This document shows, piece by piece, positions 1,991 to 24,732 of a stretch of 32,000 nt of DNA. The notes under the pieces were generated by a model. That model saw only the letters and a program-made list of their open reading frames with translations. It was not told where the DNA came from and searched no databases. This DNA comes from an uncultured Chloroflexia bacterium (GTDB taxonomy: Bacteria > Chloroflexota > Ktedonobacteria > Ktedonobacterales > JADMIN01). The stretch's first letter is position 1, and each line of letters begins with the position of its first letter. Where the stretch lies: contig CAVRAI010000003.1 of NCBI GenBank assembly GCA_963718915.1, positions 360,001 to 392,000 on the forward strand. Direction: 5' to 3'. The position numbers were made by a program, and so were the translations under genes.

Positions 1991-2660
1991 TTATCCACAA
2001 CTTGCGAAGTTATCCACAATGATTGTGGATAGGTGGGCATTGGCGCGCAATGTCCCATTTTTCCAGCAGTTCGCCACAACAGGGAGATTTTCCAGCGCTG
2101 ATGAAGACTCACTGCCTCCGTGGATAACAGGCCTGAAAATGTGGACAACTCGCCCCTTGTGTGCATAAGTAGGCGCCCGTGTCATCCTCCAGATGACCCC
2201 ACTCACCTCCCCACACCCTGTGGATAACCGTGTGGAAAAGCGCCAAAGGAGGTGGATAGGTAGTGGGTAGCGCGTGGGGAGTCTTTAGATCAATGCAGCA
2301 TGCCATCATCCACATTGTGGGGAACTGTTGTTGAGAGATCGTGGATGGCTGTGGATGGGTCGCATCCTATCCACCTCGTTCGTGGATAGCCTGCGGCGCG
2401 TATCCACAGCCATCCACAATCGATGGGGATATTATCCCGCATTTGCCACGAACGCATCCACATTGAGAACGATGCCCAGACAATCGGTCAATGTGTGGCG
2501 CCCCTGAATTCAAGGGACATATCATGCGTTACGCAAACGTCGCTCACACTTATCCCCAGTATCCACCGGCCCTATTACTATGACTGCTATTTCTCTTAAT
2601 AAAAAAAGATCATAAGAGAAGGAACATCACCAGAGGCTGTGTTGTGTTGGGATATCCACA
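1991..2660. other. Dense DnaA-box cluster; putative chromosomal replication origin (oriC) or other DnaA-binding locus
   Basis: Perfect TTATCCACA at 1991-1999 (+), 2010-2018 (+) and 2219-2227 (-). One-mismatch boxes at 2024-2032, 2119-2127, 2140-2148, 2231-2239, 2306-2314, 2400-2408, 2550-2558 and 2652-2660. Two-mismatch boxes that keep the ATCCAC core at 2251-2259, 2350-2358, 2367-2375, 2381-2389, 2410-2418, 2454-2462 and 2559-2567. An AT-rich tract lies at 2573-2620 (cctattactatgactgctatttctcttaataaaaaaagatcataagagaa). I see no credible coding frame. Confidence 0.7.
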
Positions 2661-2849
2661 CAAAAGATTTCAGATCAGTGTCACACCCCATACAAGTAAG
2701 GCACATCGTCAAGACCATTACCAACGCGAAATATCAATTCGCAAAAAACACGAAGACCAGGTTCTGGGCGCCTGGCCTTCGAAGGGGAGGGGAGGAGATT
2801 GTGAATTGTCTCTCTGACCCAAGAATACATCGCACTGTTATATAGTCAC

Positions 2850-2886
2850 ATCAGGTAAACACCTGATATCGTATCAGGTAAACACC
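2850..2886. repeat. Two 14-bp direct repeats ATCAGGTAAACACC (2850-2863 and 2873-2886); the first lies within the palindrome TCAGGTAAACACCTGA (2851-2866)
   Basis: Read directly from the sequence. The repeats sit between the DnaA-box region and the stop codon (2894) of the minus-strand MarR-fusion gene. Confidence 0.8.
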
Positions 2887-2893
2887 CTAGTAT

Positions 2894-3991
2894 TCACCGG
2901 GTCGTGATGGAGACCGAGGCGACGGAGCTTGCGAGTTCGATGTCATAGCCTGGGGCGCTTCCATCGTAGTCGGCGCTTTGCATTCGCACGTCGTTGCCCA
3001 CAGCGGTGTACGATTGATCGTCGAAGACAAGTGAGGGCGCCCAGCCTTTGAGATGGACGCGCGCGGCGACCCCCGTGGGACGCCGAATGATGACCTCCGC
3101 CGCTCCGCCACTGATTCGTAGCGGAACCACACGCGAGGGCGCGGGGAGATTCAGCTGGAGCGCGCTCATTCCACCTTTGAATTCCAGCCCGATAAGATCA
3201 AGGCCACCTAGTTCCGCGCTGACGGCCGCAGCCCCGCCACGAAACTCGATCTGCCACGGAATGGCGGCGCTGAGTGTCACCTCCGCCGCGCGCTGACGCC
3301 AGTCGAGGAGCCGCGTGCGCCGCGAATAGCGGACGGTCACCACGCCGTTCCTGGCCTTCACCTCCGGCGCTGGCCCCTCGAAACGCGCGCGGTACAACTC
3401 GTCCATCCCAGCGTCCGCGCGCAGGGTGAGTTGTACCGCGCCAGTAGGGAAGATGAGCCGACCGCTCACCACATCTCCGAGTGGCTCGGCGAAGATCCCC
3501 TGCTCATCCGATGGCGCTTCACGCAACCGGATGATTTCTTGCTGGGAGCGCGCGTTGCTCTGTGCGAGGAACTCCAGAATGGTGGCGATCTGTTCGTCGT
3601 CGTAGTGTGAGGCGATCTCCTCCCACGCCTTCCCGATAGATGCGAAGACCGCATTGATCTCGCCCATGGTGTCCTTGCCTGGGACGAGCCGGACGATGAC
3701 CCGGCGGCCATCTTCGGGATCGCGCTCTCGGAGCACCAGCCCCGACTCCTCCAGTCGATTGAGCATCCCGGTGATTGCTCCGGTCGTAAGCCCTGTCAGC
3801 TCAGCAAGCTGACCTGCGGTTGTCGGGCTGGCGCTTTCCAGGATATCCATCACCTCGATATCCGTGATGGTCATCTCCGTCCGGGCCGCCACCGCCCGGT
3901 AGAACGATGCGCCAAGTCCAGTGAACCGCCGCAACTCGCGCGTAAGTTCCCCAAGCAACGCCACATGCGTTTTCTGGGTACCCCTTGACAT
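2894..3991 (-). CDS. MarR-family winged-helix regulator fused to a beta-rich LiaF/DUF4097-like (toast-rack type) C-terminal domain
   Basis: ORF 2894..4054. I prefer the internal ATG at 3991 (MSRGTQKTHV...), which has GGAGGA 7 nt upstream. The wHTH motif is GQLAELTGLTTGAITGMLNRLEESGLVLRERDPEDGRRVIVRL. The C-terminal half shows repeated GG-x-beta-strand units (FRGGAAAVSAELGGLDLIGLEFKGGMSALQLNL...ISGGAAEVIIRRPTGVAARVHLKG), typical of LiaF-type domains. The C-terminal domain name is inference. Confidence 0.8.
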   Translation of the reverse strand: MSRGTQKTHVALLGELTRELRRFTGLGASFYRAVAARTEMTITDIEVMDILESASPTTAGQLAELTGLTTGAITGMLNRLEESGLVLRERDPEDGRRVIVRLVPGKDTMGEINAVFASIGKAWEEIASHYDDEQIATILEFLAQSNARSQQEIIRLREAPSDEQGIFAEPLGDVVSGRLIFPTGAVQLTLRADAGMDELYRARFEGPAPEVKARNGVVTVRYSRRTRLLDWRQRAAEVTLSAAIPWQIEFRGGAAAVSAELGGLDLIGLEFKGGMSALQLNLPAPSRVVPLRISGGAAEVIIRRPTGVAARVHLKGWAPSLVFDDQSYTAVGNDVRMQSADYDGSAPGYDIELASSVASVSITTR

Positions 3992-4015
3992 GCTCACGTC
4001 CTCCATGTACATTGT

Positions 4016-4040
4016 TATTAACTTAGTTACTAAGTTAATA
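4016..4040. promoter_or_regulatory. 25-bp perfect palindrome TATTAACTTAG-tta-CTAAGTTAATA; candidate MarR-type operator in a divergent promoter region
   Basis: The 11-bp arms at 4016-4026 and 4030-4040 are exact reverse complements. The site lies in the AT-rich 138-bp gap between the regulator start (3991, -) and the ABC ATPase start (4130, +). Confidence 0.55.
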
Positions 4041-4129
4041 TAGATTTGCTTCATTTAGCTGCTAAACGTGATTTCTGGATTTCCCTTAGCGGCTCAGTGA
4101 ATTGCATTGTAGCATATGGAGGTGTCCCG

Positions 4130-5086
4130 ATGATGATCGAAACGCGGGGACTGCGCAAATCGTTTGGGGATCACGTGGTGCTCGATGGCATTGACCTGAA
4201 CGTGGCTGAGGGAACAATCTTTGCGCTGCTTGGCCCCAATGGCGCTGGCAAGACGACGGCGGTTCAGATCCTCTCGACGCTTATTAGCGCCGATGGCGGC
4301 AAGGTGCGGGTTGCGGGCCACGATCTCGACAGGGAGCCTGATGCGATCCGCGCGGCGATTGGCGTGACCGGACAGTTCTCGGCGGTAGATAATCTGCTCA
4401 CCGGCGAAGAGAATCTGCTGCTGATGGCAGACCTGCATCACCTGGAGCGACGCGAAGGCCGCAAGCGTGCGGCGGCGCTGCTCGAACGCTTCGAGTTGGT
4501 CGATGCGGCGAAGAAGAGGCCAGCCACCTACTCCGGCGGTATGCGACGTCGGCTTGACCTCGCGATGACCCTGGTTGGCGACCCGCGCATTATCTTCCTC
4601 GACGAGCCGACCACCGGCCTCGATCCGCGCAGCCGCCACACGATGTGGCAGATCATCCGCGAGCACGTGGCCGACGGGGTCACCATCTTCCTGACCACGC
4701 AGTATCTGGACGAGGCGGACGAGCTTGCCAACCAGATCGCGGTGCTCGATCACGGGAAGCTGGTTGCCGAAGGCGCGCCCGACGATCTGAAACGCCTCAT
4801 CCCCGGCGGCCATATCCGCCTCCAGTTCACCGACATGGGTGCGCTCGATGCGTCCGCCCGCGTTCTGGGCAAGGTGGCACGCGATGACAACGCGCTCAGC
4901 CTCCAGATTCCAACCGACGGCAGTGTCCGGTCGCTGCGGGCTGTGCTTGACCAGCTCGACCATGCGTCCATCAAAGTTGAGGGGGTATCGGTGCACACGC
5001 CCGACCTCGACGACGTCTTCTTCGCGCTCACGGGCCAGCCAAACACGCTGGATGCCGTTGAGACACAGAAAGGCGATAGACGATGA
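4130..5086 (+). CDS. ABC transporter ATP-binding protein, DrrA/ABC-2 exporter type
   Basis: Walker A GPNGAGKTT, signature YSGGMRRRL and Walker B IIFLDEPTTGLD. I chose the ATG at 4130 (MMIETRGLRKSFG), which is preceded by GGAGG. The longest ORF starts at 4046. Confidence 0.9.
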   Translation: MMIETRGLRKSFGDHVVLDGIDLNVAEGTIFALLGPNGAGKTTAVQILSTLISADGGKVRVAGHDLDREPDAIRAAIGVTGQFSAVDNLLTGEENLLLMADLHHLERREGRKRAAALLERFELVDAAKKRPATYSGGMRRRLDLAMTLVGDPRIIFLDEPTTGLDPRSRHTMWQIIREHVADGVTIFLTTQYLDEADELANQIAVLDHGKLVAEGAPDDLKRLIPGGHIRLQFTDMGALDASARVLGKVARDDNALSLQIPTDGSVRSLRAVLDQLDHASIKVEGVSVHTPDLDDVFFALTGQPNTLDAVETQKGDRR

Positions 5087-5898
5087 CCACGCTTCCATAT
5101 ACTTTGCGCGATTCGGCGACGATGCTGCGGCGCGATGTCCGGCACTCGCTGCGCAATCTCTCGATGACGATAAGTGGCCTGCTGACGCCGGTGGTCACGA
5201 TGGCGCTGTTCATCTATGTCTTTGGCGGAACGATGGGCGCTGGCCTTGGTGGTGTGGCGCATGGCGTCTCCTATGTCAATTACGTCGCGCCCGCGATTCT
5301 CATCATGACCATCGGCAGTGGCTGCTCGACAACCGCAGTGAACTTCTGTTCCGATATGGCCGAGGGCATTATCGCGCGCTTCCGCACGATGGCGATCTCG
5401 CGCGCCTCGGTGCTGACCGGGCTGGTCTTCGGCAGCCTGATTCGGACGATGATTACCATCGCCCTCGTCATCGGGGTTGCGTTGCTCATGGGCTTCCGCC
5501 CGTCCGCGAGCCTTGGCGGTTGGATTGCGGCGCTTGGCCTGCTTGCGTTCTTCACCCTCGCGCTCACGTGGATGGCGGTGGTGTTTGGGCTGATTGGCAA
5601 GACGCCAGAGGGGGCCAACGGCCTCTCCCTCATCTTCCAGCTCATTCTGCCGTTCACCAGCAGCGCGTTTGTCAACCCGCAGTCGATGCCAGCTGGAATC
5701 CGCTGGTTCGCCGAGTATCAGCCCTTCACTCCCGTCATCGACACACTGCGGGGCCTGCTGCTGGGTACCCCGGTTCCGAACAACAGCGCGATTCTGGCCA
5801 TCACCTGGTGTATCGTCCTCACCCTGGTCGGCTACCTGTGGGCGCGTGTGGTCTATAACCGCAACGCCGTGGCGAATAACCTCAGCTCCGTACGATAG
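5083..5898 (+). CDS. ABC-2 type transporter permease (DrrB-like)
   Basis: ATGA start/stop overlap with the upstream ATPase (5083-5086). The 271-aa protein has about 6 hydrophobic helices and an ABC-2 membrane-protein pattern. Confidence 0.9.
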   Translation: MTTLPYTLRDSATMLRRDVRHSLRNLSMTISGLLTPVVTMALFIYVFGGTMGAGLGGVAHGVSYVNYVAPAILIMTIGSGCSTTAVNFCSDMAEGIIARFRTMAISRASVLTGLVFGSLIRTMITIALVIGVALLMGFRPSASLGGWIAALGLLAFFTLALTWMAVVFGLIGKTPEGANGLSLIFQLILPFTSSAFVNPQSMPAGIRWFAEYQPFTPVIDTLRGLLLGTPVPNNSAILAITWCIVLTLVGYLWARVVYNRNAVANNLSSVR

Positions 5899-6101: not shown

Positions 6102-6941
6102 TCAGTTGTCGGAATTGTCGAATGTGCTACGAGCGGGACCACTCGTGCCGGACGTTTCGAGCGCATCGAGCACGCTGGCGATATCGGCGGCGACCTCCGT
6201 GAACATGTGTGGCAGCCATTCTTCTGGATGTGGCTCGCCCTGGTGATAGGGCGACTGGCGGCGCGCGCGGCCAAGTGTCATGTGGCCCTCACGATACTCC
6301 TCAGCCACATGAAAACCACTGACACCCTCGGGATCCCAGAGCGGTAGTTCCACCCGCTGTTGTAGCGTGAGCGCCTCGGCCTCCATGCTGGTATCACCCA
6401 ACGCCAGCGCGACGTTCGAGCGCGTCTCCACGGCGCGGCTGCTATGTTCCGATGCGCGGAGCTTGACCAGGCGCGCGATGGCCTGTAAGTTGATCGCGCC
6501 CAGATCAATATGCGCCAGTGGAAGGCTATAGGAGAGGTCTATGACCAGCGGCAGCACATTTTCCGTGTGCAGATGCGGACACGACTCATCTGGCTCGTGA
6601 AAGAACTCACAGACGCCTTCAGCGCCATCGATGGAGAGTGCGGTATCCAGCGGCCCCCAGGCGAATGAGAGCGTGCAGACGGCGCGATGCTCAGCCTCTT
6701 CGCACGGGCCAGGATGCAGCGTGCAGGCAAACTCGCGCTCCAGCGTCTGCGTGTTCAACCAGAATTCTGGATGAACCGAGAGGCCGGTTGCCTCCGCCGC
6801 GCTCAGGAACAATTCGGTGAGGTCTTCATAGGTAACCATAGTTGGGCAATCCCTCCCGCCGACGAACTGTCTGTGACCGCTATCCTGCCCAAACAACGAC
6901 ATTGCGGCTTCGCGGAACGCAGTGGGTTTATCATACAACAA
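6102..6941 (-). CDS. Hypothetical acidic protein with no recognisable domain
   Basis: 279-aa ORF with coding-like composition. An alternative start is the ATG at 6839 (MVTYEDLTELF...), with GGGAGGG about 11 nt upstream. I recognise no motifs. Confidence 0.6.
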   Translation of the reverse strand: MLYDKPTAFREAAMSLFGQDSGHRQFVGGRDCPTMVTYEDLTELFLSAAEATGLSVHPEFWLNTQTLEREFACTLHPGPCEEAEHRAVCTLSFAWGPLDTALSIDGAEGVCEFFHEPDESCPHLHTENVLPLVIDLSYSLPLAHIDLGAINLQAIARLVKLRASEHSSRAVETRSNVALALGDTSMEAEALTLQQRVELPLWDPEGVSGFHVAEEYREGHMTLGRARRQSPYHQGEPHPEEWLPHMFTEVAADIASVLDALETSGTSGPARSTFDNSDN

Positions 6942-7076: not shown

Positions 7077-7450
7077 TAGCATGATGCAGGTTTACAAAAT
7101 AGGAGGGGCACGCCAGGAGGCGGGCGACTGAAGTCGCGCCTGAAGGGCCTCGCCTGCTGCGCCGCGCGCCTCCGCACGCTGCGCCTGCTGCGCCTGCTGC
7201 GCCTGCTGCGCCTGCTGCGCCTGCTGCGCCTGCTGCGCCTGCTGCGCCTGCTGCGCCTGCTGCGCACGCTCCGCCACGCAACCCGCCTGCGCGGGGTGCC
7301 CAGACCCCTGCGCCAACGGCTCGCGCGTTGGGACACGGTCTGGGAGTCCGCGACGACGGACTTGGTGGCCGCAGGCCCCAAAGGCGCGGTTTGAACCGCC
7401 CGCGCCCCTCCGCGCATGTCCCTCGTACTTTCTAAAACTACATCATGCTA
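7077..7450. mobile_element. MITE-like foldback element (~370 bp) with ~80-bp imperfect terminal inverted repeats and TA at both flanks
   Basis: The left arm reads (ta)gcatgatgcaggtttacaaaataggaggggcacgccaggaggcgggcg...gcgcctgaagggcc. The reverse complement of the right arm reads (ta)gcatgatgtagttttagaaagtacgagggacatgcgcggaggggcgcgggcg...gcgcctttggggcc. By eye the arms are about 75% identical. There is no transposase ORF, and the centre carries a tandem repeat. Confidence 0.45.
7181..7263. repeat. Tandem repeat (GCGCCTGCT) x ~9
   Basis: Perfect 9-bp periodicity read directly from the sequence. It generates the spurious QAQ / RRS / AAG repeat ORFs in the track. Confidence 0.95.
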
Positions 7451-7671: not shown

Positions 7672-9162
7672 CTACTCTTGATTTGGCTGCCGTAGCCACT
7701 CTGGCAGGTCATGGTCTTCTATCGGTTCGCCTGGTTCGAGCGACCACGGATTCACATCAGCTGGTGGCGGCGCGTAGCCCGAACCGACAGGAGCGCCGTA
7801 TCCGCTGGCGGGGCCAGGCATCGGTGAGCGTGGCCCGCTCGCCGGCGCTGGCTGCCCCTGCATAGCAGCGTCTTCGGGCATCAACGTTCGCATCCACTCG
7901 GGCACAGCGTTTGCCGCGTTGCCCGCAGAGGATTGTGGGTTGGGATAGGGCGCGGAAGGGCGATCTGAGTATCCCATGGGCATATTAGGGGGATTGGGAG
8001 CGGCTCCGCCGGGAATTGGCATGCTGGCGCTGGCGCCAGGATATCCGCCTCCGGCTCCGGGTGATGGCGGGAGCTGTGCCGCGGATGGGCCACCTGGAGC
8101 ACGCGGCGTGAGCGCCCCGCGCAGCACATCGACGAGCCGGTCCAGCGGGGTATTGCTAGGCGCTGGCCAGATGGGCTGGCGTCCGCTATTGAGCATATAG
8201 ATCGCCTCGGTGACGCGATTCGCTTCCTCCTGGGTGCGCCGCAGGACAAAATCGGCCTGTGCAAGCCGACCCAGGCGGGCGACCAGATTATTCAGGCTGC
8301 TGCCAATCTGCCAGAGCAGACTATTGCGAATGGCGGGCGCGCGCACGTTGAAGTCGCCATTGGCCAGGTGGACGTGCACCGCGAGCAACTGGCGCACTCC
8401 CTCTTCCAGTTCGTGGGTGCGATCCAGTTCGCGGCGTTCCAGTTCGGCCAGCTCTTCGGCGCGGTCGGCGCGTCGGATAGACTGCACGGTGCTGCGCGCC
8501 CAGAGGAATCCGACAACTCCAATGATAAGCTGGAACGCGACCGGGCGGGCAATGAGCGTGAGCAAACCATCCGATGTCTGAAAAAGCGTCTCCATGCTTG
8601 AGACGTGTGGCTGAAGCAGGATATCGGCGACGGTGAATCCTATAGCGGCCACCGTGACGAGGAGCACCGCGGGCGGCGCCAGGAGCGTAGCTGCTATTAC
8701 AATGGAAATTGCGAGCAAATCAAATAGGGGGAGGTAAAGAGTATCCAGTTGTCCGTTGGGCGCGCCAACTATGCTCAACACAATCACCAGGGCCGGAAGC
8801 GCTACCATAATCAGACCGGCGATGTTGACGAAGCCACTGCGGTTCAGGATCATGGCGACGACGACAGCGCCGAGGCCAATGAGCGCGCTGATGAGTGATG
8901 CGGGATCACCCAGACCGATGAAGACGGCCAGGATCATCAGCAAGAGCAAACCGAAGAGCAGCGAGCCGCCCAATCGCCCGCGGCGAGCACGGTCGCGCGT
9001 CGCAAAGTCCGCGCTTGCGGGGGGTTCTGGGGGAACCGACAGCCGGAACCACCAGCCAAATGGACCGCCATAGTAGTTTGATGTGCCTTGCGTCAGCGCT
9101 GTGCTACCCGAGCGATAAGGGGGCCGCTCAGGCTCGAAAGAAGTATTTGGCCGCATGTTCAT
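7672..9162 (-). CDS. Membrane protein with about 5 TM helices, a coiled-coil/HAMP-like segment and a Pro/Gly-rich C-terminal tail
   Basis: 496-aa ORF with GGTGAGGTGA immediately upstream of the start. There is a hydrophobic block (LLFGLLLLMILAVFIGL...), then ELAELERRELDRTHELEEGVRQLLAVHVHLANGDFNVRAP, and a low-complexity P/G/A tail. Confidence 0.8.
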   Translation of the reverse strand: MNMRPNTSFEPERPPYRSGSTALTQGTSNYYGGPFGWWFRLSVPPEPPASADFATRDRARRGRLGGSLLFGLLLLMILAVFIGLGDPASLISALIGLGAVVVAMILNRSGFVNIAGLIMVALPALVIVLSIVGAPNGQLDTLYLPLFDLLAISIVIAATLLAPPAVLLVTVAAIGFTVADILLQPHVSSMETLFQTSDGLLTLIARPVAFQLIIGVVGFLWARSTVQSIRRADRAEELAELERRELDRTHELEEGVRQLLAVHVHLANGDFNVRAPAIRNSLLWQIGSSLNNLVARLGRLAQADFVLRRTQEEANRVTEAIYMLNSGRQPIWPAPSNTPLDRLVDVLRGALTPRAPGGPSAAQLPPSPGAGGGYPGASASMPIPGGAAPNPPNMPMGYSDRPSAPYPNPQSSAGNAANAVPEWMRTLMPEDAAMQGQPAPASGPRSPMPGPASGYGAPVGSGYAPPPADVNPWSLEPGEPIEDHDLPEWLRQPNQE

Positions 9163-9360: not shown

Positions 9361-9389
9361 ATGATACGCGGATTCAAGGAATCGGTCAA
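9361..9389 (-). promoter_or_regulatory. Candidate sigma-70-type promoter (TTGACC-17 nt-TATCAT) for the 7672..9162 gene
   Basis: The minus strand reads TTGACC gattccttgaatccgcg TATCAT. This would give a ~200-nt leader. Sequence match only. Confidence 0.3.
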
Positions 9390-9433: not shown

Positions 9434-9466
9434 GGATACGCTCAGGATACGCTCAGGATACGCTCA
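9434..9466. repeat. Tandem repeat (GGATACGCTCA) x3 overlapping the stop codon of the ThiF-fusion gene
   Basis: Three perfect 11-bp units at 9434-9444, 9445-9455 and 9456-9466. Each carries TGA on the minus strand, so all three frames are closed. Confidence 0.95.
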
Positions 9467-11461
9467 GGACTGGCCCGACTGACCCACAGAAGGAATTGGC
9501 GGGCCATATGGCGGTGAGGCATACCAGCGCGGCGGGATTTGCGCCTCTTGCAGGAACATGGGCTGGGGCAGGTTCGCATTCCTCGCCAACTTTGCCACCT
9601 CGATGATCGCGCTCCGTGTGGATTCTGCCGGGCTGGCCAGCGCGCCATTCAGTTGCAGGCGGAAAGGCGCAATCGCGCGCAGGTCGGCGGTCGCCATGAC
9701 GAATGGCCAGAAATAGCCTTCCGCGTTGGTTGGCGGGATCCAGAAATCGTCTTCGGGCGCCGCCTCCGAGACGACGACCTGCGCCCAGGGGGCATAGAGC
9801 ATCGGAATATTGACCAGCTCCATCAGATTGCGCGCCTCAGGCCCGCTGCTCCCAAGCGCCACGTCGATGCCCAGCCGGGGGTTGGTCAGCACCTCCGTCA
9901 GCGCGTAGCATACCTCGAAGACCGCAATCCCTGTCAGCGGCGTTTTGATGGCCTGATTCCGCATCAAATGGGCTATCTCACGCATGCGCTCGACCGGTAT
10001 CGCTTGAATCGCGGGCAGCGACTCGAAGACGCCCCGGCCAAAGAGTTCGGTCTCGGCGGGGAACACCGCGCGTTCCTGGTCGGCCAGCGCCAGTGGTCGG
10101 CGGCGCTTTACCAGCAATCCGGTTGGCTCGCTATAGAGCGGCCCCCTGGGAGGCACAATTGAGCAACAGGCAAGGATTTGCCCCGAAGCCGTGCCACAGA
10201 GGACGTGAATCGCATTTTCCGCCAGATCAGCCAGCGTGGGGTCGGTGCGATAGCCGTGCTGCGCAATCTTCGAGGTGTCGTAGAGGCCCGCGAGGGCATA
10301 TTGATCGATTCTGAACTCGCCAAATTCGTTGAAGGCGTTCGCCGACAGCATATCGTGACGGATCGCGTAGGACCATAACCCCGACGGACGGTTGCGCAGG
10401 TAGAGGACATCCTTCCCCCTGGCGGCAAGCGCGGTGAGCGCAGGATAGCGCGCGCTCAACTGGCGGCTGCGCAGATAGACAAGAAAGTCGTCATCGGACT
10501 TCTTCGGCGCGGGCATCCGCAGTATTCCGGGGCTGGCGCTGGCTTTGCGTGTCTCAGGCGTCGCGCTCACCGCGGCTGGCGCTGGCAGCGTTGTGGCGGT
10601 ATCGCCTGGTTCTTCATCCGCTGCCGCTTCAACCTGCTCATCACTCGGTGGAGCGCTGGACGCCGCGGCGGATGGTTCGAGCAGGATGCGCAGATCGATG
10701 TGAGAAGCCGCTGGCGTGACCCGAACCGGCTCGTTGGCGGCGAGCGCCGCCGCCGCCCGCACCACCATCGCCGCGGTGAGCGATGCGGCCGGGCCAAGTT
10801 GCGGCTCGCAGGGCCACTGCGCGCCGTTGGTCTGGAAATCCGCCAGTGTCGTGGCGAGGTAGTCTGGCACGCCAACAGGCGACCCTCCGAAGGCGCTCGC
10901 GACGAGCCGCCCAGACACATCGGCGGCGTTATGGGTAGCCGCTGGATCCACACCCAGCATCTCTTCCAGGGGCATAGAATCCGCCGTGAAGACGAACACC
11001 GCGCCACCCCAGCCCAGATTCAGCGGGATGATCATCGGAACACCACGGGCGCGGGCATCGCGTGCCAGCGCGAACAGCGCCGGATTGTCATAGTCGATGG
11101 AGTTGATGACGATATTCGCCCGATCAAGTGAGGCGACATACGAGTCATTCTCGATGAATTCAGGGAGGACGATTACCTCAACATCTGGCCGGATATCGCG
11201 CAGCAGTTCCGCCGTGGCGGCGGCCTTGTTGGCGCCAATCTGGTGGCGAAAGAACGCCTGCCGATTCAGGTTCGATAGCTCGACGCTATCGCCATCCGCC
11301 AGGATGAACGAGCCGAACCCGGTGCGACATGCGAGCGCGACGATAGTACTACTGAGTCCGGCGCCAGCGGCAAACAGACAGGTATGATCGAGTATGTGCT
11401 GGATATCGGGTGTGATGAAGGCCCAGTTGCGTGAAAACAAATCATCGGAATCACTTGTCAT
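9464..11461 (-). CDS. ThiF/MoeB/E1-like adenylyltransferase domain fused, through an Ala/Pro/Glu-rich linker, to an uncharacterised ~360-aa C-terminal domain (possibly a LuxI/FeeM-like acyl-synthase fold)
   Basis: AGGAG lies about 8 nt upstream of the ATG at 11461. The N-terminal motifs are LFAAGAGLSSTIVALACRTGFGSFILADGDSVELSNLNRQ, GANKAAA and INSIDYDNPALF, which match the nucleotide loop, Arg finger and Asp of E1-like enzymes. There are no CxxC zinc pairs. The C-terminal pattern is ...FRIDQYALAGLYD...HVLCGTASGQILACCSIVP...ERMREIAHLMRNQ...GIDVALGSSGPEARNLMELVNIPM. Its family assignment is tentative. Confidence 0.85.
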   Translation of the reverse strand: MTSDSDDLFSRNWAFITPDIQHILDHTCLFAAGAGLSSTIVALACRTGFGSFILADGDSVELSNLNRQAFFRHQIGANKAAATAELLRDIRPDVEVIVLPEFIENDSYVASLDRANIVINSIDYDNPALFALARDARARGVPMIIPLNLGWGGAVFVFTADSMPLEEMLGVDPAATHNAADVSGRLVASAFGGSPVGVPDYLATTLADFQTNGAQWPCEPQLGPAASLTAAMVVRAAAALAANEPVRVTPAASHIDLRILLEPSAAASSAPPSDEQVEAAADEEPGDTATTLPAPAAVSATPETRKASASPGILRMPAPKKSDDDFLVYLRSRQLSARYPALTALAARGKDVLYLRNRPSGLWSYAIRHDMLSANAFNEFGEFRIDQYALAGLYDTSKIAQHGYRTDPTLADLAENAIHVLCGTASGQILACCSIVPPRGPLYSEPTGLLVKRRRPLALADQERAVFPAETELFGRGVFESLPAIQAIPVERMREIAHLMRNQAIKTPLTGIAVFEVCYALTEVLTNPRLGIDVALGSSGPEARNLMELVNIPMLYAPWAQVVVSEAAPEDDFWIPPTNAEGYFWPFVMATADLRAIAPFRLQLNGALASPAESTRSAIIEVAKLARNANLPQPMFLQEAQIPPRWYASPPYGPPIPSVGQSGQS

Positions 11462-11816
11462 GTCGTACTCTCCTGCACAAGACGATACGGGTTATCCTTT
11501 ACCTGCATCTAGTTCCCATGACTAGCGGCTTTCCGTGAGCGCGCCAGAGGTGTAAAGAGGTGTGTGGCTGACATGGATGACATGGATGACAGTCAGCACT
11601 CGCATTCTATGAGCGCATCGGTGAGGTGTCAACTAAAGCAAGAACACAAATATCGACTGGCCACGAAAGATTGAGGCTTGACGAAAGTACTATAGGAGGC
11701 GTAGGCTGATCGTGGCCCAGATGCCATTATGGGGGATGCTTGAGCAGGGACACGCATCAAGAGTCGCTTGTTCTACAGGGATGTCTTTATGCGGGCGCCT
11801 GCAACAAGGAGGAAAA

Positions 11817-12836
11817 ATGACTGCCGAGGTGGTGCGAGCGACTCGACCGAGTGTCAAGCAACAAGTTGGGGATCTGTATGCGAAGTACGGTCAGCGAAAA
11901 CCGATGGGAGTGAGCGCGCCCAGCCCGTGGCTGCCTCACTATTTTCTGCACAGAACGTTTCTTGGCGATCAGGATCTGCTTATTATCTTCAATACCAAAC
12001 GCTGCAAGTACCGTTGTCACTTCTGTCAGCTTCCGGCGAAAAGTTCGCCAACGCTTATTCCGGGCAGTGAGATTGTCTCACAGTTCTCGTATGTGGTGAA
12101 AGAACTGAAACACTCGCTGAGTGTAATAGATCGCCTCACCTTCAGCAACGAAGGGTCTGTGCTCGACGCGGCGACATTTCCTACCGAGGCCATGCTTGAA
12201 ATCGCCGAAGGTATCAACGAGCTACGCCGCGTGCGCACGCTCGTGCTGGAGACGCGCCTCGAGTTTGTCGATACCGATGTGCTGGCACAGATTCGCGAGG
12301 TAGCTCCTCGCATCACCTTCAATATCCTGACCGGCTTCGAGACGCACGATCCCTACATTCGCGACAAAGTGTTATTCAAACGCGAGCCGCTCGATGTCTT
12401 CGAGAGCGGGCTGGATCGGGTGGCTGAGGCAGGCGCGCAACTGACGACCTACGTGCTCTTCAAGCCGCGCTGGGATATGACCGACGAGGAGGCCGTCGCC
12501 GAGGCGGAATCCAGCATTGATTACCTGGTGGAGCAGACGAAGGCGCGCGGGCTTGGCCTCTCGGTGCGACTCAATCCCATGTATGCCGCGGATGGATCGC
12601 GGTGGGCGAAAAAGGCGCACACCTCGTCGGACTACCAGCCACCGCGGCTGACCGATGTGATGCGCGTGGCCGAGAAGAAACGCCGCGAGGGTGTCAATAT
12701 CTACATTGGCATGTCCACCGAGGGTCTCGACGACGGCTCGAACTACATGGGGCGTGAGGACTACTCCATGAAGCTCATCAGGCCGGTTCTGCTCTTCAAC
12801 GGCGGCAAGATCAATTCATTCAACGGCTACATCTAG
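11817..12836 (+). CDS. Radical SAM enzyme (single CX3CX2C cluster, no SPASM/twitch Cys motifs)
   Basis: CKYRCHFC is encoded at 12003-12026. I chose the ATG at 11817, preceded by AAGGAGG-aaaa; the longest ORF starts at GTG 11712. There are no other Cys residues downstream. Core motifs are FSNEGSVLD, VLETRLEFV and GFETHD, and the C-terminal SDYQPPRL reminds me of a TIGR01210/RaSEA-like layout (from memory, low confidence). Confidence 0.85.
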   Translation: MTAEVVRATRPSVKQQVGDLYAKYGQRKPMGVSAPSPWLPHYFLHRTFLGDQDLLIIFNTKRCKYRCHFCQLPAKSSPTLIPGSEIVSQFSYVVKELKHSLSVIDRLTFSNEGSVLDAATFPTEAMLEIAEGINELRRVRTLVLETRLEFVDTDVLAQIREVAPRITFNILTGFETHDPYIRDKVLFKREPLDVFESGLDRVAEAGAQLTTYVLFKPRWDMTDEEAVAEAESSIDYLVEQTKARGLGLSVRLNPMYAADGSRWAKKAHTSSDYQPPRLTDVMRVAEKKRREGVNIYIGMSTEGLDDGSNYMGREDYSMKLIRPVLLFNGGKINSFNGYI

Positions 12837-12848
12837 GTCATCCAGGTC

Positions 12849-13376
12849 ATGGCAAGCGCTAACGGCGACGATACCAACAAGACAACGACGATGATGCAGC
12901 CGACGACGCTGGATGGGCTGCTCGCGGAGGGCGGTGTCCGCTGCTTCGCGGGCGGCCTGGAGGTTGAGGTGCGGCGCGCATGGATCGTCGCGGGCGAGGA
13001 TCGTCTCGCCTACACGGCCATCGTGCGTCTGGTCGAATGTTGCCGCGAGTGGCACTGGCGGTCCGATATCCTCCCGCATGTGGGCGGCGCGCCGCTGGAC
13101 TCGATCACCAAATCCTTCGCGGCGGAGTTTACGCATCCAATAGCCCTTGGGAGCCTGCTGCGCATCACGCATCAGGTGATCGACGCGCGCCCCCGCAGCT
13201 ACCAGCTTCGCTTTGAGCTGACCACGCTACAGCCCGAACAGCTTTGCGCCACGCTGGAGATGGTCAGCGTCTTCTATGACCCCACGCGCGAAGCCGTCGC
13301 CGAGCCATCACCCGCCGTGGTGGCCTACCTCCGCTCCCACATCTCTCCCAATCTGCCAGCCGACGACAACTCGTAG
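12849..13376 (+). CDS. Hotdog-fold (4HBT/thioesterase-like) protein
   Basis: It starts 12 nt after the radical SAM stop, which suggests an operon. The 175-aa protein has the pattern VRRAWIVAGEDRLAYTAIVRLVECCREWHW...LLRITHQVIDARPRSYQLRFELT...ATLEMVSVFYD, consistent with the central helix plus beta-sheet of a hotdog fold. Inference from pattern only. Confidence 0.6.
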   Translation: MASANGDDTNKTTTMMQPTTLDGLLAEGGVRCFAGGLEVEVRRAWIVAGEDRLAYTAIVRLVECCREWHWRSDILPHVGGAPLDSITKSFAAEFTHPIALGSLLRITHQVIDARPRSYQLRFELTTLQPEQLCATLEMVSVFYDPTREAVAEPSPAVVAYLRSHISPNLPADDNS

Positions 13377-13382
13377 CGAGCG

Positions 13383-15743
13383 CTAGGGGGCGGCGACGGC
13401 AAAGACCCTCCCCTGCGCGTCGCTGGCGATGCCATTTATCGGCGGCGCTATAATGCCGTTCACTGGCACGGACCAGAGCATCCCATCTCCGCCCGTCGTC
13501 GGCGCATAGAGCAGCGAAAACTGTGGCGTCGGGCCAAGCGCCTGCCAGCGGCTCGCCCCCGAAGGCAAACGGTAGACATTGTATGTGGTTGCGCCGCTTC
13601 CGGTCGCCGCCATGTTGATCGCCAACAACGCGCCATCGCTGGTGAAGATGGGATAGTGCGGCGTAGCTGTCGCGTCGCCAGTGTCCAGCCCGGTTATATC
13701 GTGCCAGCCCTGGCCGCTATCGTCGCCGCAATACAGCAAATTGCTCGGCGCCGTGGTCGGGCTTGCTGCGAAGTCGGATACACAGATATCCCAGGCATGA
13801 TTTGGCTGTGGCGGCCGCACGATCACAGACGTAAAGCCATACGTTGGCGCTCGCAGGTTGCTCCAGTGCGCCCCGCCATCGCTGGAACGCCAGACCACCG
13901 TGGATGAGGTCGTCGTCACTCCTGCTCCGCTTGCCGAGGGCGGGACATTCGTCGCGAGTAATGCGCCGTTATAGGGGTTCAGCCAGAACTGGTCAACACT
14001 CGTTCTCCCGCCGCGGATAGCGCCGTCAACGATATGCCATGTCGCCATACCGTCTGTGCTGGCCTGCAATTCCGCCGTCGCGGTGGCGCTGAGCGGGTTT
14101 TCGACACGCAGGGCGTAGAATGCGCTGCCCTGTGTCGCGAACTGGTAGACGAGTGAGCCGTCGAGGCCGGATATATGTTGCCAGGAGACGCCGCCATTGC
14201 TGCTCCGATAATACCTGTCTGGCAGGGTAGTCCCGCCCGCAGGTGGATCTTGCGCAATGCCCAGCAGCACATCGCGTGGGTCCACCTCGTCCACCACGAG
14301 CGAACACCAGCCAGTGACTTGCGGCAGCGGGAGCGATGACCATGATGCGCCACCATCGTGCGTCGCCCAGCCCTGTGGTTGCGTGGCAGGCGGATCCGCG
14401 TTCGGCTGCGCGCAGGCGTAGGCGGTGCGGCCATCGCTCGGCGCGACTGCCAGGATGTTGGTGCTCGTCAGTCGTGGCTGGAAACCCGTTGGAGTGGCAA
14501 CCGGTTGCCATGCCAGCGGCGCGCCCTGTTCTACGTTGCCCATGGGTGTCGGCGTCTGCTGAGTCTGCGTGGGCAGCGGCGGCGCTGCTGGCCCAGGATA
14601 GCTGGCGGTGAAGATTTCTCCGCTGGAATGCACATCGAGCGGCAGAGTCGGCATAGACCAGAATATTCCCCCGCCCGGCCGTTGAGCGTAGGTTACGAAT
14701 TCGTTGCCTGGCGTATTTCCCGGCAGTCCACTGCCATTTTGCCAGTGGGAGGAACCTATCGGAAGACGATAGAGACTGGTGTGGGTTGTCGCGCCCTGCG
14801 CATCGAAGCGATCATCAACCGTCGCCAGCACAGCGCCATCGTTGGCGATACCCAGTGGTGTGATCGCCCCATAAGGATAGGCGTTCGACGAATCGCCGCA
14901 GCCCGCGCAGGGCGACGGCGCCGCGTTGCCCTGCCGCAGGATGTCGAGGCCGGACCGCTCGCTCCAACTGCTGGTGTCTGTGCCGCAATAGACATGGCTC
15001 CGAAAATCTGGATGCCGCAGATCGGTGCTGACGCCCGCGACCAGCGTACAGATCGACCAGCCCAGGCCATCGCTAGCTGGGATGGCTGCAACGCTCCCTG
15101 GCGGCGACTCCCCAACCTTGCGCCAGGTGGCGCCGTGGTCGTCTGTCGCCCAAAATAAGAGATCCGATGCTGGGCTTGGGATCGAATGCGCCTCAACCAG
15201 CAAATCGCCGCTCGTAGGGTTGATCCAGAAATAATCGCTGAGCAGCTTCTGGCTATGGATAGGATTATCCAGGACATTCCAGGTCGTTCCGCCATCGGCG
15301 CTCACCTCCAGACTCGTGGTGAACTCGCCAGTCTCGCGCACGGCATAGATTGCCCCATTGTGCATCGCGAATTCCCGCGCGAACTGGAAGGACGAGCCAT
15401 CCTGCCAGCTCACCCCGCTATCGAAGGTGATGAGATAGTCCACCTGCACTGTAGCTGGCTTGGCGTCAGGGATGTAGCCGTACTGGAGTAGCGCCACATC
15501 GGGATTGACCTGGTCGAGCGTGATCTGACACTCGTACGTTTTAACGCTGGTGGGAGCCGACGCCACCTGCCAGGTCGCGCCGCCATCACTTGTGCGCCAG
15601 ACACGGAGCGGGCCGGGCGCGGGCTTCGTCCCCGACTGGCAGAGCCACGCAACCGAGCCATCCGCATGGAAGACACTCAACCTGGCGTTGGCGCCGGGAG
15701 TCTCGCCCACCGCCGCAGGCAGTTTGACCTGCCGCCAATGCAC
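13383..15743 (-). CDS. Asp-box (BNR) repeat beta-propeller ectodomain, ~780 aa. Probably the frameshifted C-terminal part of the upstream anti-sigma factor; it has no start or signal peptide of its own
   Basis: About 9 Asp-box motifs: TSDGGATWQ, FDSGVSWQ, SADGGTTWN, TDDHGATWR, THDGGASWS, SSNGGVSWQ, STDGMATWH, SSDGGAHWS and GDDSGQGWH. The credible sequence starts around ...QPFQVHWRQVKLPAAVGE. The 917-aa track ORF extends to 16136 only as Arg-rich out-of-frame overlap. 15743 is the first in-frame GTG. Confidence 0.7.
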   Translation of the reverse strand: MHWRQVKLPAAVGETPGANARLSVFHADGSVAWLCQSGTKPAPGPLRVWRTSDGGATWQVASAPTSVKTYECQITLDQVNPDVALLQYGYIPDAKPATVQVDYLITFDSGVSWQDGSSFQFAREFAMHNGAIYAVRETGEFTTSLEVSADGGTTWNVLDNPIHSQKLLSDYFWINPTSGDLLVEAHSIPSPASDLLFWATDDHGATWRKVGESPPGSVAAIPASDGLGWSICTLVAGVSTDLRHPDFRSHVYCGTDTSSWSERSGLDILRQGNAAPSPCAGCGDSSNAYPYGAITPLGIANDGAVLATVDDRFDAQGATTHTSLYRLPIGSSHWQNGSGLPGNTPGNEFVTYAQRPGGGIFWSMPTLPLDVHSSGEIFTASYPGPAAPPLPTQTQQTPTPMGNVEQGAPLAWQPVATPTGFQPRLTSTNILAVAPSDGRTAYACAQPNADPPATQPQGWATHDGGASWSSLPLPQVTGWCSLVVDEVDPRDVLLGIAQDPPAGGTTLPDRYYRSSNGGVSWQHISGLDGSLVYQFATQGSAFYALRVENPLSATATAELQASTDGMATWHIVDGAIRGGRTSVDQFWLNPYNGALLATNVPPSASGAGVTTTSSTVVWRSSDGGAHWSNLRAPTYGFTSVIVRPPQPNHAWDICVSDFAASPTTAPSNLLYCGDDSGQGWHDITGLDTGDATATPHYPIFTSDGALLAINMAATGSGATTYNVYRLPSGASRWQALGPTPQFSLLYAPTTGGDGMLWSVPVNGIIAPPINGIASDAQGRVFAVAAP

Positions 15744-16221
15744 CTGAAATGGCTGCGAGGCGGTTCTGCGCGCCAGACTGGAAGAGCCGCGCAAAGCCGA
15801 CCACCACCAGCGCGATGGCAGCCACAGCGGCCAGCGTCCCCAGCGCGCGCCTGCGCCAGCTCCGTGGCGGAGTGAGTGATGGAGGAATCGGGTTCCTCTC
15901 GCCGGACTCGTCGGGTACGAGATGTTCGCCGGTGATCGAGTCGGCGCTCGTCGTCTGCCGTTCGGCGGCGAGGGCCGCGAGCACCCCCTGCCAGAGCCGC
16001 TCGTCGGGGGAGGGAACCTGCTGCGCCTGGAGCGTCGCCGCGACCATCGCGAATCCCCGCAGCCGCTGCTGACAGGCCGGGCAGCTCTCGCTATGCGCGC
16101 CGATGCGGGCCGTCTCATCCGGCGCGAGCGCCTCATCGCGCCAGGCGGAGAGGTCGGCGGAGGTCAGGCCAAGCGCGCAGGTGGGTGTCGTCTGTTGGCT
16201 CATATCGCTCGTCTGGCTCAT
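15586..16221 (-). CDS. Zinc-binding (ZAS, HxxxCxxC) anti-sigma factor N-terminal domain plus a single TM helix; the reading frame degenerates after the TM helix
   Basis: The ATG at 16221 overlaps the sigma-factor stop (ATGA). The zinc motif is GAHSESCPACQQRL and the TM helix is LGTLAAVAAIALVVVGFARLF. After ~15770 this frame reads nonsense-like sequence (GGGRDSRRQRQVECLPCGW...), while the +1 frame carries the propeller. Confidence 0.75.
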   Translation of the reverse strand: MSQTSDMSQQTTPTCALGLTSADLSAWRDEALAPDETARIGAHSESCPACQQRLRGFAMVAATLQAQQVPSPDERLWQGVLAALAAERQTTSADSITGEHLVPDESGERNPIPPSLTPPRSWRRRALGTLAAVAAIALVVVGFARLFQSGAQNRLAAISGALAAGQTACGGGRDSRRQRQVECLPCGWLGCVALPVGDEARARPAPCLAHK

Positions 16222-16907
16222 GATCGCTGCTCCTCGCGGGTATAGCGCGCGCGGAAGGCGTCGCGGCCACGGCTGAGTGTCATCTTGGCGGCGGCCAGCG
16301 TGATGCCCAGCGCCTCTGCCATCTCGGCGCACGAGAAGCCACACACCTCCCGCAGCACCAGCGCCGCCCGCTGTTGTGGCGGCAGCGCCAGCAGCGTCGC
16401 GCGTATCGCCTCGCTTTCCGCCAGTCGCCAGGCCGGATCGCTGATGGATGGCTCGTTGCCCATGGAGAATGGCTGGGCCGCGCCGACGGGAGCCGCCGCG
16501 CGTTTCTGGTGGGTCAGGGCGAGGTTGGTTGCCACACGAAAGAGCCAGCCACCGGGACGCTCATAGGTGGCGATACGGTCGAAGTGCTGCCAGGCGCGCA
16601 CAAAGGTCTCCTGGCTGAGGTCATACGCCGCCTGTTCATCGCCGGTCATGCGCCAGAGATAGCCGAAGATGTCGCGCTCATGCCGTCGGAAGAAAGCCTC
16701 GAAAGATGGAAGATCGCTGGTGTTGGCGTTGACGCTGGTATCGTCATCAGAAGGCGCGCTGGCGAGCGTGTGCTCAGACGCGCCCGTGATTTCAGTCAGG
16801 TTGGCGCTTCTCCGTAGCGCGCGCCCTATATCCGATATATCCCACCATGCGCCAGGCGTCCGCGAGCGACGGATTCTCCTCGCCGACCAACTGCCCGCGA
16901 TGACCAT
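16218..16907 (-). CDS. ECF (RpoE-like) RNA polymerase sigma-70 family factor
   Basis: Region 2 reads FRRHERDIFGYLWRMTGDEQAAYDLSQETFVRAW. Region 4 reads LPPQQRAALVLREVCGFSCAEMAEALGITLAAAKMTLSRGR. The start is uncertain because the N-terminal ~40 aa of the longest ORF look non-conserved. Confidence 0.85.
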   Translation of the reverse strand: MVIAGSWSARRIRRSRTPGAWWDISDIGRALRRSANLTEITGASEHTLASAPSDDDTSVNANTSDLPSFEAFFRRHERDIFGYLWRMTGDEQAAYDLSQETFVRAWQHFDRIATYERPGGWLFRVATNLALTHQKRAAAPVGAAQPFSMGNEPSISDPAWRLAESEAIRATLLALPPQQRAALVLREVCGFSCAEMAEALGITLAAAKMTLSRGRDAFRARYTREEQRS

Positions 16908-17138
16908 CTACTCGGCTTCCTTTCATCGAATTGTGTCTATCTCGATAGTGCATCGTGGTGTTGTGGCTGTACAGGCCTCTCACGTCACACACTATTGGAG
17001 CAGCACGAAAGTAACATCCTGTTTGGGCGTCTCAAACGTAACAACGACGGCGCGGGCCAATCGTGTACAATGGCAGCGCGCCAGTTTAGCAGCTCAGCAT
17101 CGTGGCTGGCCGTTTCTCTCGCTGGTTGGAGTGATGAG

Positions 17139-19730: not shown

Positions 19731-20022
19731 ATCGCGCCGGAGCCTGTCAGTACTCGGAGCCGGTGAGTGGGCCAGGAGAGGTCTTCCTGACTGTGCGCTA
19801 GACGTTTGTGGCTTGCGCCTACATGCGTAAGTCCCAGACGGTCAGGCCGCTACTCAGATCAGGAAGCAAAAGGTGTTTTTGCACAAGTGGCGTGGTGATC
19901 AGTGCGCACTTTGGAGCAGTGCCCTTGACTTCGATGTGCGCACCGCAATTGTCCGACGACATACGCTTATATTTCACTACAACACGAGGCTATCTGAACC
20001 ATTGTCACGCCAAGCGCTGTCT

Positions 20023-24638: not shown

Positions 24639-24732
24639 CAACGCGAAAAGGATCACTCTATGACCTCTTCTCTGAATTTTCCCAAACACGCTCTTAATTG
24701 GTTCATAAATAGAAAAACTGGGAGAAGTCACT

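Follow-up and report, generated by a model that had tools for sequence, protein, structure and literature searches.

The closest described counterparts of the system analyzed here differ from one of its parts to the next. The system is a set of four genes in a 32,000-nucleotide stretch of DNA, called the window below, from an uncultured soil Chloroflexia bacterium (GenBank assembly GCA_963718915.1, contig CAVRAI010000003.1, positions 360,001 to 392,000). For the C-terminal domain of gene 1 of this set, the best structural matches are the acyl homoserine lactone (AHL) synthases TofI (3P2H), LasI (1RO5), RpaI, BjaI, and MesI, together with FeeM (2G0B); judging from its predicted model, the domain shares with LuxI and FeeM the GNAT-type fold that is used for acyl transfer from acyl carrier protein (ACP) or coenzyme A (CoA) to an amine. 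OlsB-type aminolipid N-acyltransferases belong to the same comparison by extension. With about 348 amino acids (aa) the domain is larger than LuxI or FeeM (170 to 215 aa), having large insertions and a C-terminal helical extension, and LuxI and FeeM are not known with the ThiF, cyclic nucleotide (cNMP)-binding, methyltransferase, or GNAT fusions or with the membrane partner that occur in this family. ThiF and MoeB, TcdA, the structures 9EGB, 9EGC, and 9EGD, and the family PRK08223 have adenylation-site residues in common with gene 1, but gene 1 lacks zinc CxxC pairs and contains neither a rhodanese domain nor a catalytic cysteine domain, and no ubiquitin-like partner was found near it. The ThiF-fold enzymes MccB and PaaA, of the microcin C and pantocin A pathways, adenylate a carboxylate and promote intramolecular attack by nitrogen; they have an N-terminal peptide-binding domain, a zinc site, and a precursor peptide, none of which was found here.

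On the other side of the locus, RaSEA and queuine lyase are the closest characterized relatives of the radical S-adenosylmethionine (SAM) enzyme, which has a single-cluster minimal architecture and, it appears, like RaSEA an obligatory partner. The partner of RaSEA is ArcS, whereas here it is a hotdog-fold, thioesterase-like protein, sometimes fused to the enzyme, in a context that is not that of deazapurines. Elp3 likewise joins a radical SAM domain to a GNAT-fold domain that binds an acyl thioester (acyl-CoA), although in our locus the parts are separate, divergently transcribed, and drawn from other subfamilies, and nothing points to tRNA. The Thoeris protein ThsA enters the comparison through other genomes, where the SIR2 domain of SIR2–STAND–FGE-sulfatase proteins encoded after radical SAM–hotdog pairs matches ThsA models; STAND and SIR2 genes are absent from the window itself, and its biosynthetic genes match no defense model.

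The locus is best explained as a four-gene system made of two modules, with transcription running outward in both directions from a conserved promoter region. Module A, on the minus strand, consists of a membrane protein and gene 1, a fusion of a ThiF domain to a domain of acyltransferase fold, and module B, on the plus strand, consists of the radical SAM enzyme and its hotdog partner. An initial annotation of this DNA had described gene 1, the radical SAM gene, and the hotdog gene as a three-gene unit. All three open reading frames (ORFs) are present where it placed them, and every motif that it quoted (AGAGLSS, DGDSVELSNLNRQ, SIDYDN, and CKYRCHFC) occurs in the sequence. The genes are thus real; the proposed unit, however, omitted the membrane protein gene, and the trio falls into two modules. 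The genes and domains are as follows.

7672-9162, minus strand: partner membrane protein, 496 aa (homologues adjoin the acyltransferase-like gene)
9464-11461, minus strand: gene 1, ThiF domain plus linker plus LuxI/FeeM-like domain, 665 aa (ORF list, Pfam, homologue alignment)
10676-11461, minus strand: ThiF/E1-type adenylation domain of gene 1, about aa 1-262 (Pfam ThiF, E 8.6e-21)
10511-10675, minus strand: low-complexity linker of gene 1 rich in Ala, Pro, Ser, and Glu, about aa 263-317 (alignment columns ~330-430)
9467-10510, minus strand: C-terminal 348-aa domain of gene 1, predicted GNAT-type fold (AlphaFold model, Foldseek against the PDB)
11817-12836, plus strand: radical SAM enzyme, RaSEA-like, 339 aa (Pfam, NCBIfam, alignment, model)
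12849-13376, plus strand: hotdog-fold 4HBT_2 thioesterase-like protein, 175 aa (Pfam 4HBT_2)

Because these proteins are conserved over many contigs, they are unlikely to be chance ORFs. By the names on near-identical database proteins and loci, the window is Ktedonobacterales-like Chloroflexota DNA. Gene 1 has about 47 homologues that are full-length or nearly so, at 39 to 92% identity, and the family of the radical SAM protein is much broader, with more than 330 database proteins. The longest ORF of the radical SAM gene begins with GTG at 11712; we prefer the 339-aa reading, which begins with ATG at 11817 and ends at 12836, because the sequence AAGGAGG at 11806-11812 precedes this start and is kept in eight relatives.

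The N-terminal part of gene 1 matches Pfam ThiF (PF00899) over aa 11 to 237 with 74.6 bits against a cut-off of 28.1, and the protein contains seven cysteines and not one CxxC pair, in line with the original description of a ThiF-type adenylation fold without zinc-binding pairs. The ATP-binding residues, whose loss had been named as a reason to abandon that proposal, are intact in an alignment to Escherichia coli ThiF (1ZUD/1ZFN), in which D56, R67, K79, D123, and the nucleotide loop align with the corresponding Asp, Arg, Lys, Mg-Asp, and loop of that enzyme. The loop reads GAGLSS (G33-A-G35-L-S-S), its third Gly being replaced by Ser. Across 21 homologues of 41 to 91% identity, R11 (in SRN), G33 and G35, D56, R67 (in NLNRQ), K79, and D123 are invariant; R11 lies outside the E. 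coli ThiF alignment and matches only the SRN motif of 9EGB/9EGC. These two entries are the best solved relatives of the domain (E 2e-20) and have in common with it both SRN and the NLGWGG motif that gene 1 also carries. In the PDB, 9EGB, 9EGC, and 9EGD carry no label beyond "THIF-type NAD/FAD binding fold domain-containing protein," and a literature search turned up no paper on 9EGB/9EGC. TcdA, which modifies tRNA, ranks among the best relatives of the domain, and PaaA and MccB are among its weak PDB matches. In NCBIfam the best match is the uncharacterized PRK08223 (85.4 bits versus 266), and the domain stays under every equivalog cut-off of that library, including those of ThiF (TIGR02356, 62.6 versus 275) and TcdA (45 versus 304).

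Gene 1 has no N-terminal peptide-clamp domain or RiPP (ribosomally synthesized and posttranslationally modified peptide) recognition element (RRE), as the ThiF domain begins at residue ~8. Among ORFs of 45 codons or more, counted from stop to stop, none that ends in Gly-Gly lies near the cassette, although such a partner may be encoded elsewhere in the genome; the window's only ORFs with this ending are either far away or overlap other genes. A ubiquitin-like conjugation or sulfur-carrier system was rejected on this ground. The low-complexity linker reported to follow the ThiF domain is there, varying in length and sequence among homologues and being short or missing in those of 39 to 43% identity.

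For the C-terminal domain, an AlphaFold model built with 22 sequences was confident, with a predicted local distance difference test (pLDDT) score of 85.6 and a predicted template modeling score (pTM) of 0.87. Foldseek placed TofI (E 3.8e-6) at the top of its PDB matches with LasI, FeeM, RpaI, MesI, and BjaI, and generic GNATs ranked under these AHL synthases and FeeM; the figures for the domain were E 4e-6 to 3e-4, target-normalized TM 0.6 to 0.69, and 9 to 15% identity. The likeness to LuxI/FeeM-type N-acyl synthases that had been suspected from motif spacing therefore stands at the level of fold, by Foldseek on a predicted model, but not at that of sequence profiles: neither the window domain nor 38 members of its family gave, even with E values allowed up to 1, a relevant Pfam match (Autoind_synth, Acetyltransf_5, or any GNAT family), and the domain had no NCBIfam match and no PDB sequence-profile match. 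Over the 38-member alignment, H419, R464, E470, E495, P586, and D593 are invariant.

An exhaustive HMMER search collected 139 representatives of the family of this domain, clustered at 50% identity. Most (91) are stand-alone proteins of about 340 to 390 aa, 37 are C-terminally extended (by a cNMP-binding, methyltransferase, or GNAT domain or by cNMP- plus FAD-binding domains), and 8 have an N-terminal ThiF domain. P0220, P0224, P0233, P0246, and P0247 are ThiF fusions whose C-terminal domains are 30 to 37% identical. A word-indexed profile search with an alignment of the domain gave at least 25 proteins, and a genome scan with it found eight loci, all in Chloroflexota. In one related locus (L014), the ThiF and acyltransferase-like domains are separate neighboring genes of 371 and 361 aa. 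The fusion in 8 clusters and the adjacency in L014 indicate that the two domains work in one pathway. The branch with a C-terminal cNMP-binding domain includes P0321 and P0322, as well as P0259, P0262, P0270, and P0290; in the case of P0321 and P0322, a TENA/Haem_oxygenase_2 (diiron oxygenase-like) gene lies upstream and overlaps the acyltransferase-like gene, another uncharacterized pairing.

The membrane protein belongs to the system. It has about five to six hydrophobic segments between aa 64 and 226, a conserved coiled segment (IRRADRAEELAxLE ... ANGDFxxRAP ... SLNNLxxRL ... PIWPAPSxT), and a Pro/Ala/Gly-rich tail of about 150 aa. By eye the ANGDFxxRAP...LNNL segment looks HAMP-like; the protein has no match in Pfam (HAMP included), NCBIfam, PADLOC, or PDB sequences. 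Homologues of 35 to 39% identity adjoin the acyltransferase-like gene in L011, L012, L013, L014, and L080, as well as in every close relative; of these, L011 has a stand-alone acyltransferase-like gene and L013 and L080 have distant ThiF fusions. The membrane protein gene is the tightest linkage of gene 1, next to it in every divergent neighborhood that could be read.

The radical SAM protein contains exactly three cysteines, C63, C67, and C70, which form CxxxCxxC and are invariant in 27 sequences, so that the earlier call of a single-cluster, non-SPASM enzyme with no auxiliary cysteines holds. The Pfam Radical_SAM score of the window protein (28.0 bits) is slightly under the cut-off of 29.5. 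Its predicted model, a generic radical SAM barrel, was confident (pLDDT 90.5) and had 104 PDB matches at E ≤ 0.001, dominated by radical SAM proteins and not specific within the superfamily, with Elp3 (8PTX and 8ASW) among them; a profile of the family matched a single PDB sequence, that of queuine lyase (6P78, E 8.8e-6). The only meaningful NCBIfam match is TIGR01210/RaSEA, at 99.2 bits versus a cut-off of 212 (84.4 bits for the homologue in L030). RaSEA is thus the nearest family, as had been supposed, but membership does not follow, and we call the enzyme RaSEA-like.

As the initial annotation had it, the hotdog gene begins 12 nt past the stop codon of the radical SAM gene and encodes a hotdog, thioesterase-like protein (Pfam 4HBT_2, 30.4 bits versus 25.5). 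Its homologues match 4HBT_2 only weakly, and the window protein scores 13.7 bits versus 68.7 against the YbgC family TIGR00051, so the thioesterase match holds at superfamily level only. A GEDRL(A/S)YT...ECCRE motif, which, judged by eye, may be equivalent to the YbgC catalytic Asp, is conserved in the hotdog proteins of the window, L014, and P0142. We scanned 64 metagenomic loci retrieved with the radical SAM family alignment, plus the earlier loci, with purpose-built hidden Markov models. Of the 59 loci with enough sequence, 54 have a hotdog gene that directly follows the radical SAM gene or forms a fusion with it; fusions occur in P0142 (487 aa, clean) and in two loci. From this association the two proteins almost certainly act together, and the hotdog protein is almost certainly the obligate partner of the enzyme.

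All-against-all clustering of the conserved neighbors of module B showed that the pair keeps other company outside the clade of the window. Of the 27 loci that extend 1.3 kb or more upstream, 23 have a fatty acid synthase (FAS)-type ACP (80 bits; NCBIfam cut-off, 71) and a FabG-like short-chain dehydrogenase/reductase (SDR) on that side. Downstream, a large NACHT/STAND NTPase that ends in an FGE-sulfatase (FGS) domain follows the hotdog gene in 16 of the 21 loci that extend 2.5 kb or more in this direction, and a class I methyltransferase is also frequent near the pair. The N termini of these STAND proteins vary, being SIR2_2 domains that match ThsA models, BTAD domains, or nothing recognizable. 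Several of the loci sit among restriction-modification, MmeI, GmrSD, toxin-antitoxin, and Bub genes.

Diverse uncultured bacteria carry a recurrent operon with the order ACP, FabG-like SDR, radical SAM enzyme, hotdog protein, and SIR2/BTAD/none–NACHT-STAND–FGE-sulfatase, with or without the methyltransferase. It matches no PADLOC system and is possibly an undescribed small-molecule immune or regulatory system. Besides the three loci placed below, the same operon is found in L002, L004, L028, L032, L033, L037, L061, and L072.

L030, 6867-13579: ACP–SDR–radical SAM–hotdog–SIR2-STAND-FGS operon
L036, 6884-13780: the same operon
L052, 7131-13538: the same operon

Three of these loci hold further observations. 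At L033 8049-11519 the STAND–FGE-sulfatase protein has a C-terminal methyltransferase domain, and a LysA-like pyridoxal phosphate-dependent decarboxylase gene follows at 11538-12663; the methyltransferase fusion recalls the FGE-sulfatase plus methyltransferase part of OvoA, and the arrangement hints at an FGE-sulfatase domain that may be enzymatic rather than a sensor. L028 encodes, at 3839-5176 between the hotdog and STAND genes, a 445-aa protein with a 150-aa stretch like anti-phage ProA (52 bits against NF058533, far under the cut-off). In L004, from a Solirubrobacterales metagenome-assembled genome, a bacterial ubiquitination-like (Bub) gene set (BubE plus DUF6791–ThiF, 16324-17020) lies about 7 kb from the radical SAM cassette; its ThiF protein belongs to a different ThiF family than gene 1.

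The genes for the ThiF, acyltransferase-like, and membrane proteins join the radical SAM pair only in one Ktedonobacteria-type group. A neighbor-joining tree groups the radical SAM genes linked to ThiF as one clade nested within the wider family. The trio of the initial annotation therefore does co-occur in other genomes, within this one clade, but elsewhere its modules are separate: a 521-kb contig (L011) has the membrane protein/acyltransferase pair and no ThiF or radical SAM genes, L012 likewise has module A without module B, and L002 to L004 and about 44 other loci have module B without module A. Within the clade the combination is more than trivial synteny, as a comparison of sequences indicates, because L014 keeps the same divergent layout with all five parts 38 to 63% identical to those of the window and with ThiF and the acyltransferase-like domain as separate genes.

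The earlier statement that the genes belong to no characterized pathway agrees with curated families, PADLOC, plasmid records, and literature searches, none of which yielded one. The family libraries, collections, and literature that we searched contain neither a ThiF–acyltransferase fusion nor a radical SAM–hotdog pairing; no annotated plasmid-borne homologues were found, and the literature gave nothing relevant on TIGR01210 or PRK08223, or on ThiF, radical SAM, GNAT, and thioesterase proteins in combination. The acyltransferase-fold family and the family of the membrane partner are uncatalogued. The system as a whole is taken to be new by exclusion, as nothing known fits it; every part comes from a known enzyme superfamily.

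The function that we favor, tentatively and with low confidence, is a four-gene pathway for an N-acyl amide-type lipid or signal derived from an acyl thioester, with a membrane partner. The radical SAM enzyme would tailor the acyl chain of an acyl thioester, either acyl-ACP or acyl-CoA, that is bound by the hotdog protein, a division of labor that may be likened to that of RaSEA, which acts on a substrate held by ArcS; an acyl thioester is suggested as the substrate of module B by the ACP and FabG-like reductase genes upstream of it in other taxa. The LuxI/FeeM-like domain would then move the acyl group from the thioester to an amine, for example that of an amino acid, as suggested by a predicted fold that is nearest to acyl-ACP/CoA-dependent N-acyl synthases. 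The ThiF domain may adenylate a carboxylate of the substrate or product, leading to condensation or cyclization, as in TcdA and MccB. That it would act on a small-molecule carboxylate is suggested because there is no ubiquitin-like partner, zinc site, catalytic cysteine domain, or peptide-binding domain. The membrane protein, finally, could sense, anchor, or export the resulting amphiphilic product.

Several points weigh against this pathway. None of the four families has a known substrate, product, or activity, and the window locus contains no ACP, acyl-activating enzyme, or obvious amine-supplying gene. The acyltransferase assignment comes from the predicted fold only, with no profile that links the domain to LuxI or FeeM, and the enzymes nearest to the radical SAM protein work on 7-deazaguanine nucleosides rather than on lipids. 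Modules A and B are each found without the other (L011; L002 to L004), and their combination is limited to one lineage and could be inherited synteny. The undescribed small-molecule pathway that the initial annotation envisaged retains its support in that no characterized relative was found; its peptide and nucleoside versions are kept below as rivals of low probability.

The company that module B keeps in other bacteria raises the alternative of conflict- or defense-type signaling, in which the radical SAM–hotdog pair would make a signal or modification for an immunity switched by an NTPase, and in which, in the clade of the window, the membrane protein and the ThiF–acyltransferase fusion would have replaced the STAND–FGE-sulfatase sensor/effector. 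The STAND–FGE-sulfatase gene right after the hotdog gene in those 16 of 21 outside loci speaks for it, as do the effector-like variation of the N termini (a ThsA-like SIR2_2, a BTAD, or neither), neighbors that include the restriction-modification, MmeI, GmrSD, toxin-antitoxin, and Bub genes and the ProA-like fragment, and the description of FGS domains as sensor or neutralizing modules of conflict systems (PMC7159879). The STAND linkage tells nothing direct about module A, however, the window has no effector-type domain and no defense genes nearby, and no PADLOC model matches the radical SAM, hotdog, ACP, SDR, membrane, or acyltransferase-like proteins; we consider a role in defense to be on the unlikely side. 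Membership in a known anti-phage system was rejected against PADLOC-DB 2.0, in which the only hits were a generic E1 similarity of the ThiF domain and a 17-bit radical SAM match. A plainer account, which strikes us as unlikely, is that the two modules are unrelated and have become neighbors only by shared ancestry within Ktedonobacteria. Each does stand alone elsewhere (L011/L012; L002 to L004 and about 44 loci), and one capture event accounts for all co-occurrence of the two, given that the radical SAM genes linked to ThiF make up one clade within the ACP/SDR/STAND-linked family. Yet the head-to-head layout has been kept at 38 to 63% identity and across the fusion or fission of ThiF and acyltransferase, and module B in this clade is without the ACP, SDR, and STAND partners that it keeps elsewhere, a loss which suggests that module A supplies the missing functions.

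The remaining rivals differ from the N-acyl amide pathway in the kind of substrate. ThiF-family enzymes classically activate the C termini of proteins or peptides, and with PaaA and MccB among the PDB matches, gene 1 could belong to a RiPP-like or ubiquitin-like modification of a peptide or protein in which ThiF adenylates the C terminus (compare MccB, PaaA, and E1) and the other enzymes tailor the product; GNAT and radical SAM enzymes are frequent RiPP tailoring enzymes. Such a role is very doubtful in view of a locus without a peptide clamp or RRE, zinc site, conserved small ORF, or nearby Gly-Gly ORF and a radical SAM enzyme without SPASM or twitch cysteines, and assignment to a SPASM/RiPP maturase or to MccB/PaaA-type RiPP synthesis was rejected for lack of auxiliary cysteines, a peptide-binding domain, a zinc site, and a conserved small ORF. 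Kinship with RaSEA and queuine lyase could instead place the genes in nucleoside or tRNA modification or salvage of the 7-deazaguanine type, given that TIGR01210/RaSEA is the only NCBIfam match (99 bits), that queuine lyase 6P78 is the sole PDB profile match, and that TcdA is among the best ThiF relatives. This is extremely improbable: the radical SAM score is below half the RaSEA cut-off, the domain-scanned neighborhoods contain no ArcS, TGT, QueC/D/E, or other deazapurine genes, and the conserved partners (ACP, FabG-like reductase, and hotdog protein) point to thioester chemistry. Membership in the RaSEA/archaeosine/queuosine group was rejected for this score and the wrong gene context.

If the N-acyl amide pathway is carried to its most specific form, the fusion would be an ATP-dependent maker of cyclized or condensed N-acyl amino-acid signals in filamentous Chloroflexota, AHL-like in function. 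The acyltransferase would form an N-acyl amino acid, the ThiF domain would adenylate its carboxylate and so close a ring, in the manner of TcdA with t6A, an unusual acyl chain would come from the radical SAM–hotdog pair, and the membrane protein would be the cognate receptor, and the ACP–FabG-like–radical SAM–hotdog genes that precede SIR2/BTAD–STAND–FGE-sulfatase genes elsewhere would be a separate, so far unrecognized immune or regulatory system based on a small-molecule signal. As a joint claim this is speculative and quite unlikely to hold in full.

Should the general reading be right, it would add a new acyltransferase-fold family of 139 clusters (at 50% identity), absent from Pfam, akin in fold to the synthases of quorum signals, and tied to ThiF, cNMP-binding, and membrane partners. 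It would also add a new and widespread radical SAM–hotdog pair, whose closest characterized relatives cleave C-N bonds on deazapurines and which is usually tied to NLR-like STAND NTPases with SIR2 effectors and FGE-sulfatase sensors. The product, once identified, would reveal new radical SAM chemistry and could uncover a signal or lipid of the Ktedonobacteria, which are little studied, developmentally complex, and rich in metabolites. Uncharacterized enzyme cassettes are common, and nothing here yet overturns an expectation; that the system is genuinely uncharacterized is well supported, and a link to signaling or immunity is plausible.

The divergent region between gene 1 and the radical SAM gene holds two promoter-like sites, and a third lies ahead of the membrane protein gene.

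9361-9389, minus strand: promoter-like site TTGACC-17-TATCAT for the membrane protein gene (consensus scan)
11604-11632, minus strand: near-consensus promoter-like site TTGACA-17-TAGAAT for gene 1 (consensus scan; most hexamer positions invariant in eight relatives)
11678-11707, plus strand: promoter-like site TTGACG-18-TAGGCT for the radical SAM/hotdog operon (block invariant in eight relatives)
11806-11812, plus strand: Shine-Dalgarno sequence AAGGAGG, 4 nt ahead of the ATG at 11817 (invariant in eight relatives)

The site at 11678-11707 falls short of consensus in its spacing and its -10 hexamer. Neither intergenic region contains a conserved small ORF, the frames being broken by indels. 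A riboswitch or other RNA element in the divergent region was rejected, with no Rfam match at the gathering threshold or at E ≤ 1.

Two tandem repeats lie near the genes of module A. A perfect 11-bp repeat (GGATACGCTCA, 3.3 copies; TGAGCGTATCC three times on the gene strand) spans 9434-9469 of the window and begins at the stop codon of gene 1; none of the 81 related loci has it, which makes a recent duplication by slippage the probable origin. A 9-bp repeat of 13 copies (CGCCTGCTG) lies at 7151-7265, between a 279-aa ORF (6102-6941) and the membrane protein gene, and appears as (SRR)n or (AAG)n runs in overlapping candidate ORFs of the minus strand. On the other side of the cassette, the minus strand of 13383-16907 carries a gene for an extracytoplasmic function (ECF)-type sigma-70 factor (16218-16907) and, next after it, a 917-aa ORF whose product has Sortilin/BNR (Asp-box) repeats. 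L001 likewise has this pair beside its cassette, and the two genes look like an unrelated unit of a sigma factor and a surface protein. The G+C content is 0.50 to 0.52 in three 1-kb stretches (2001-3000, 20001-21000, and 24001-25000) versus about 0.62 in the rest of the window.

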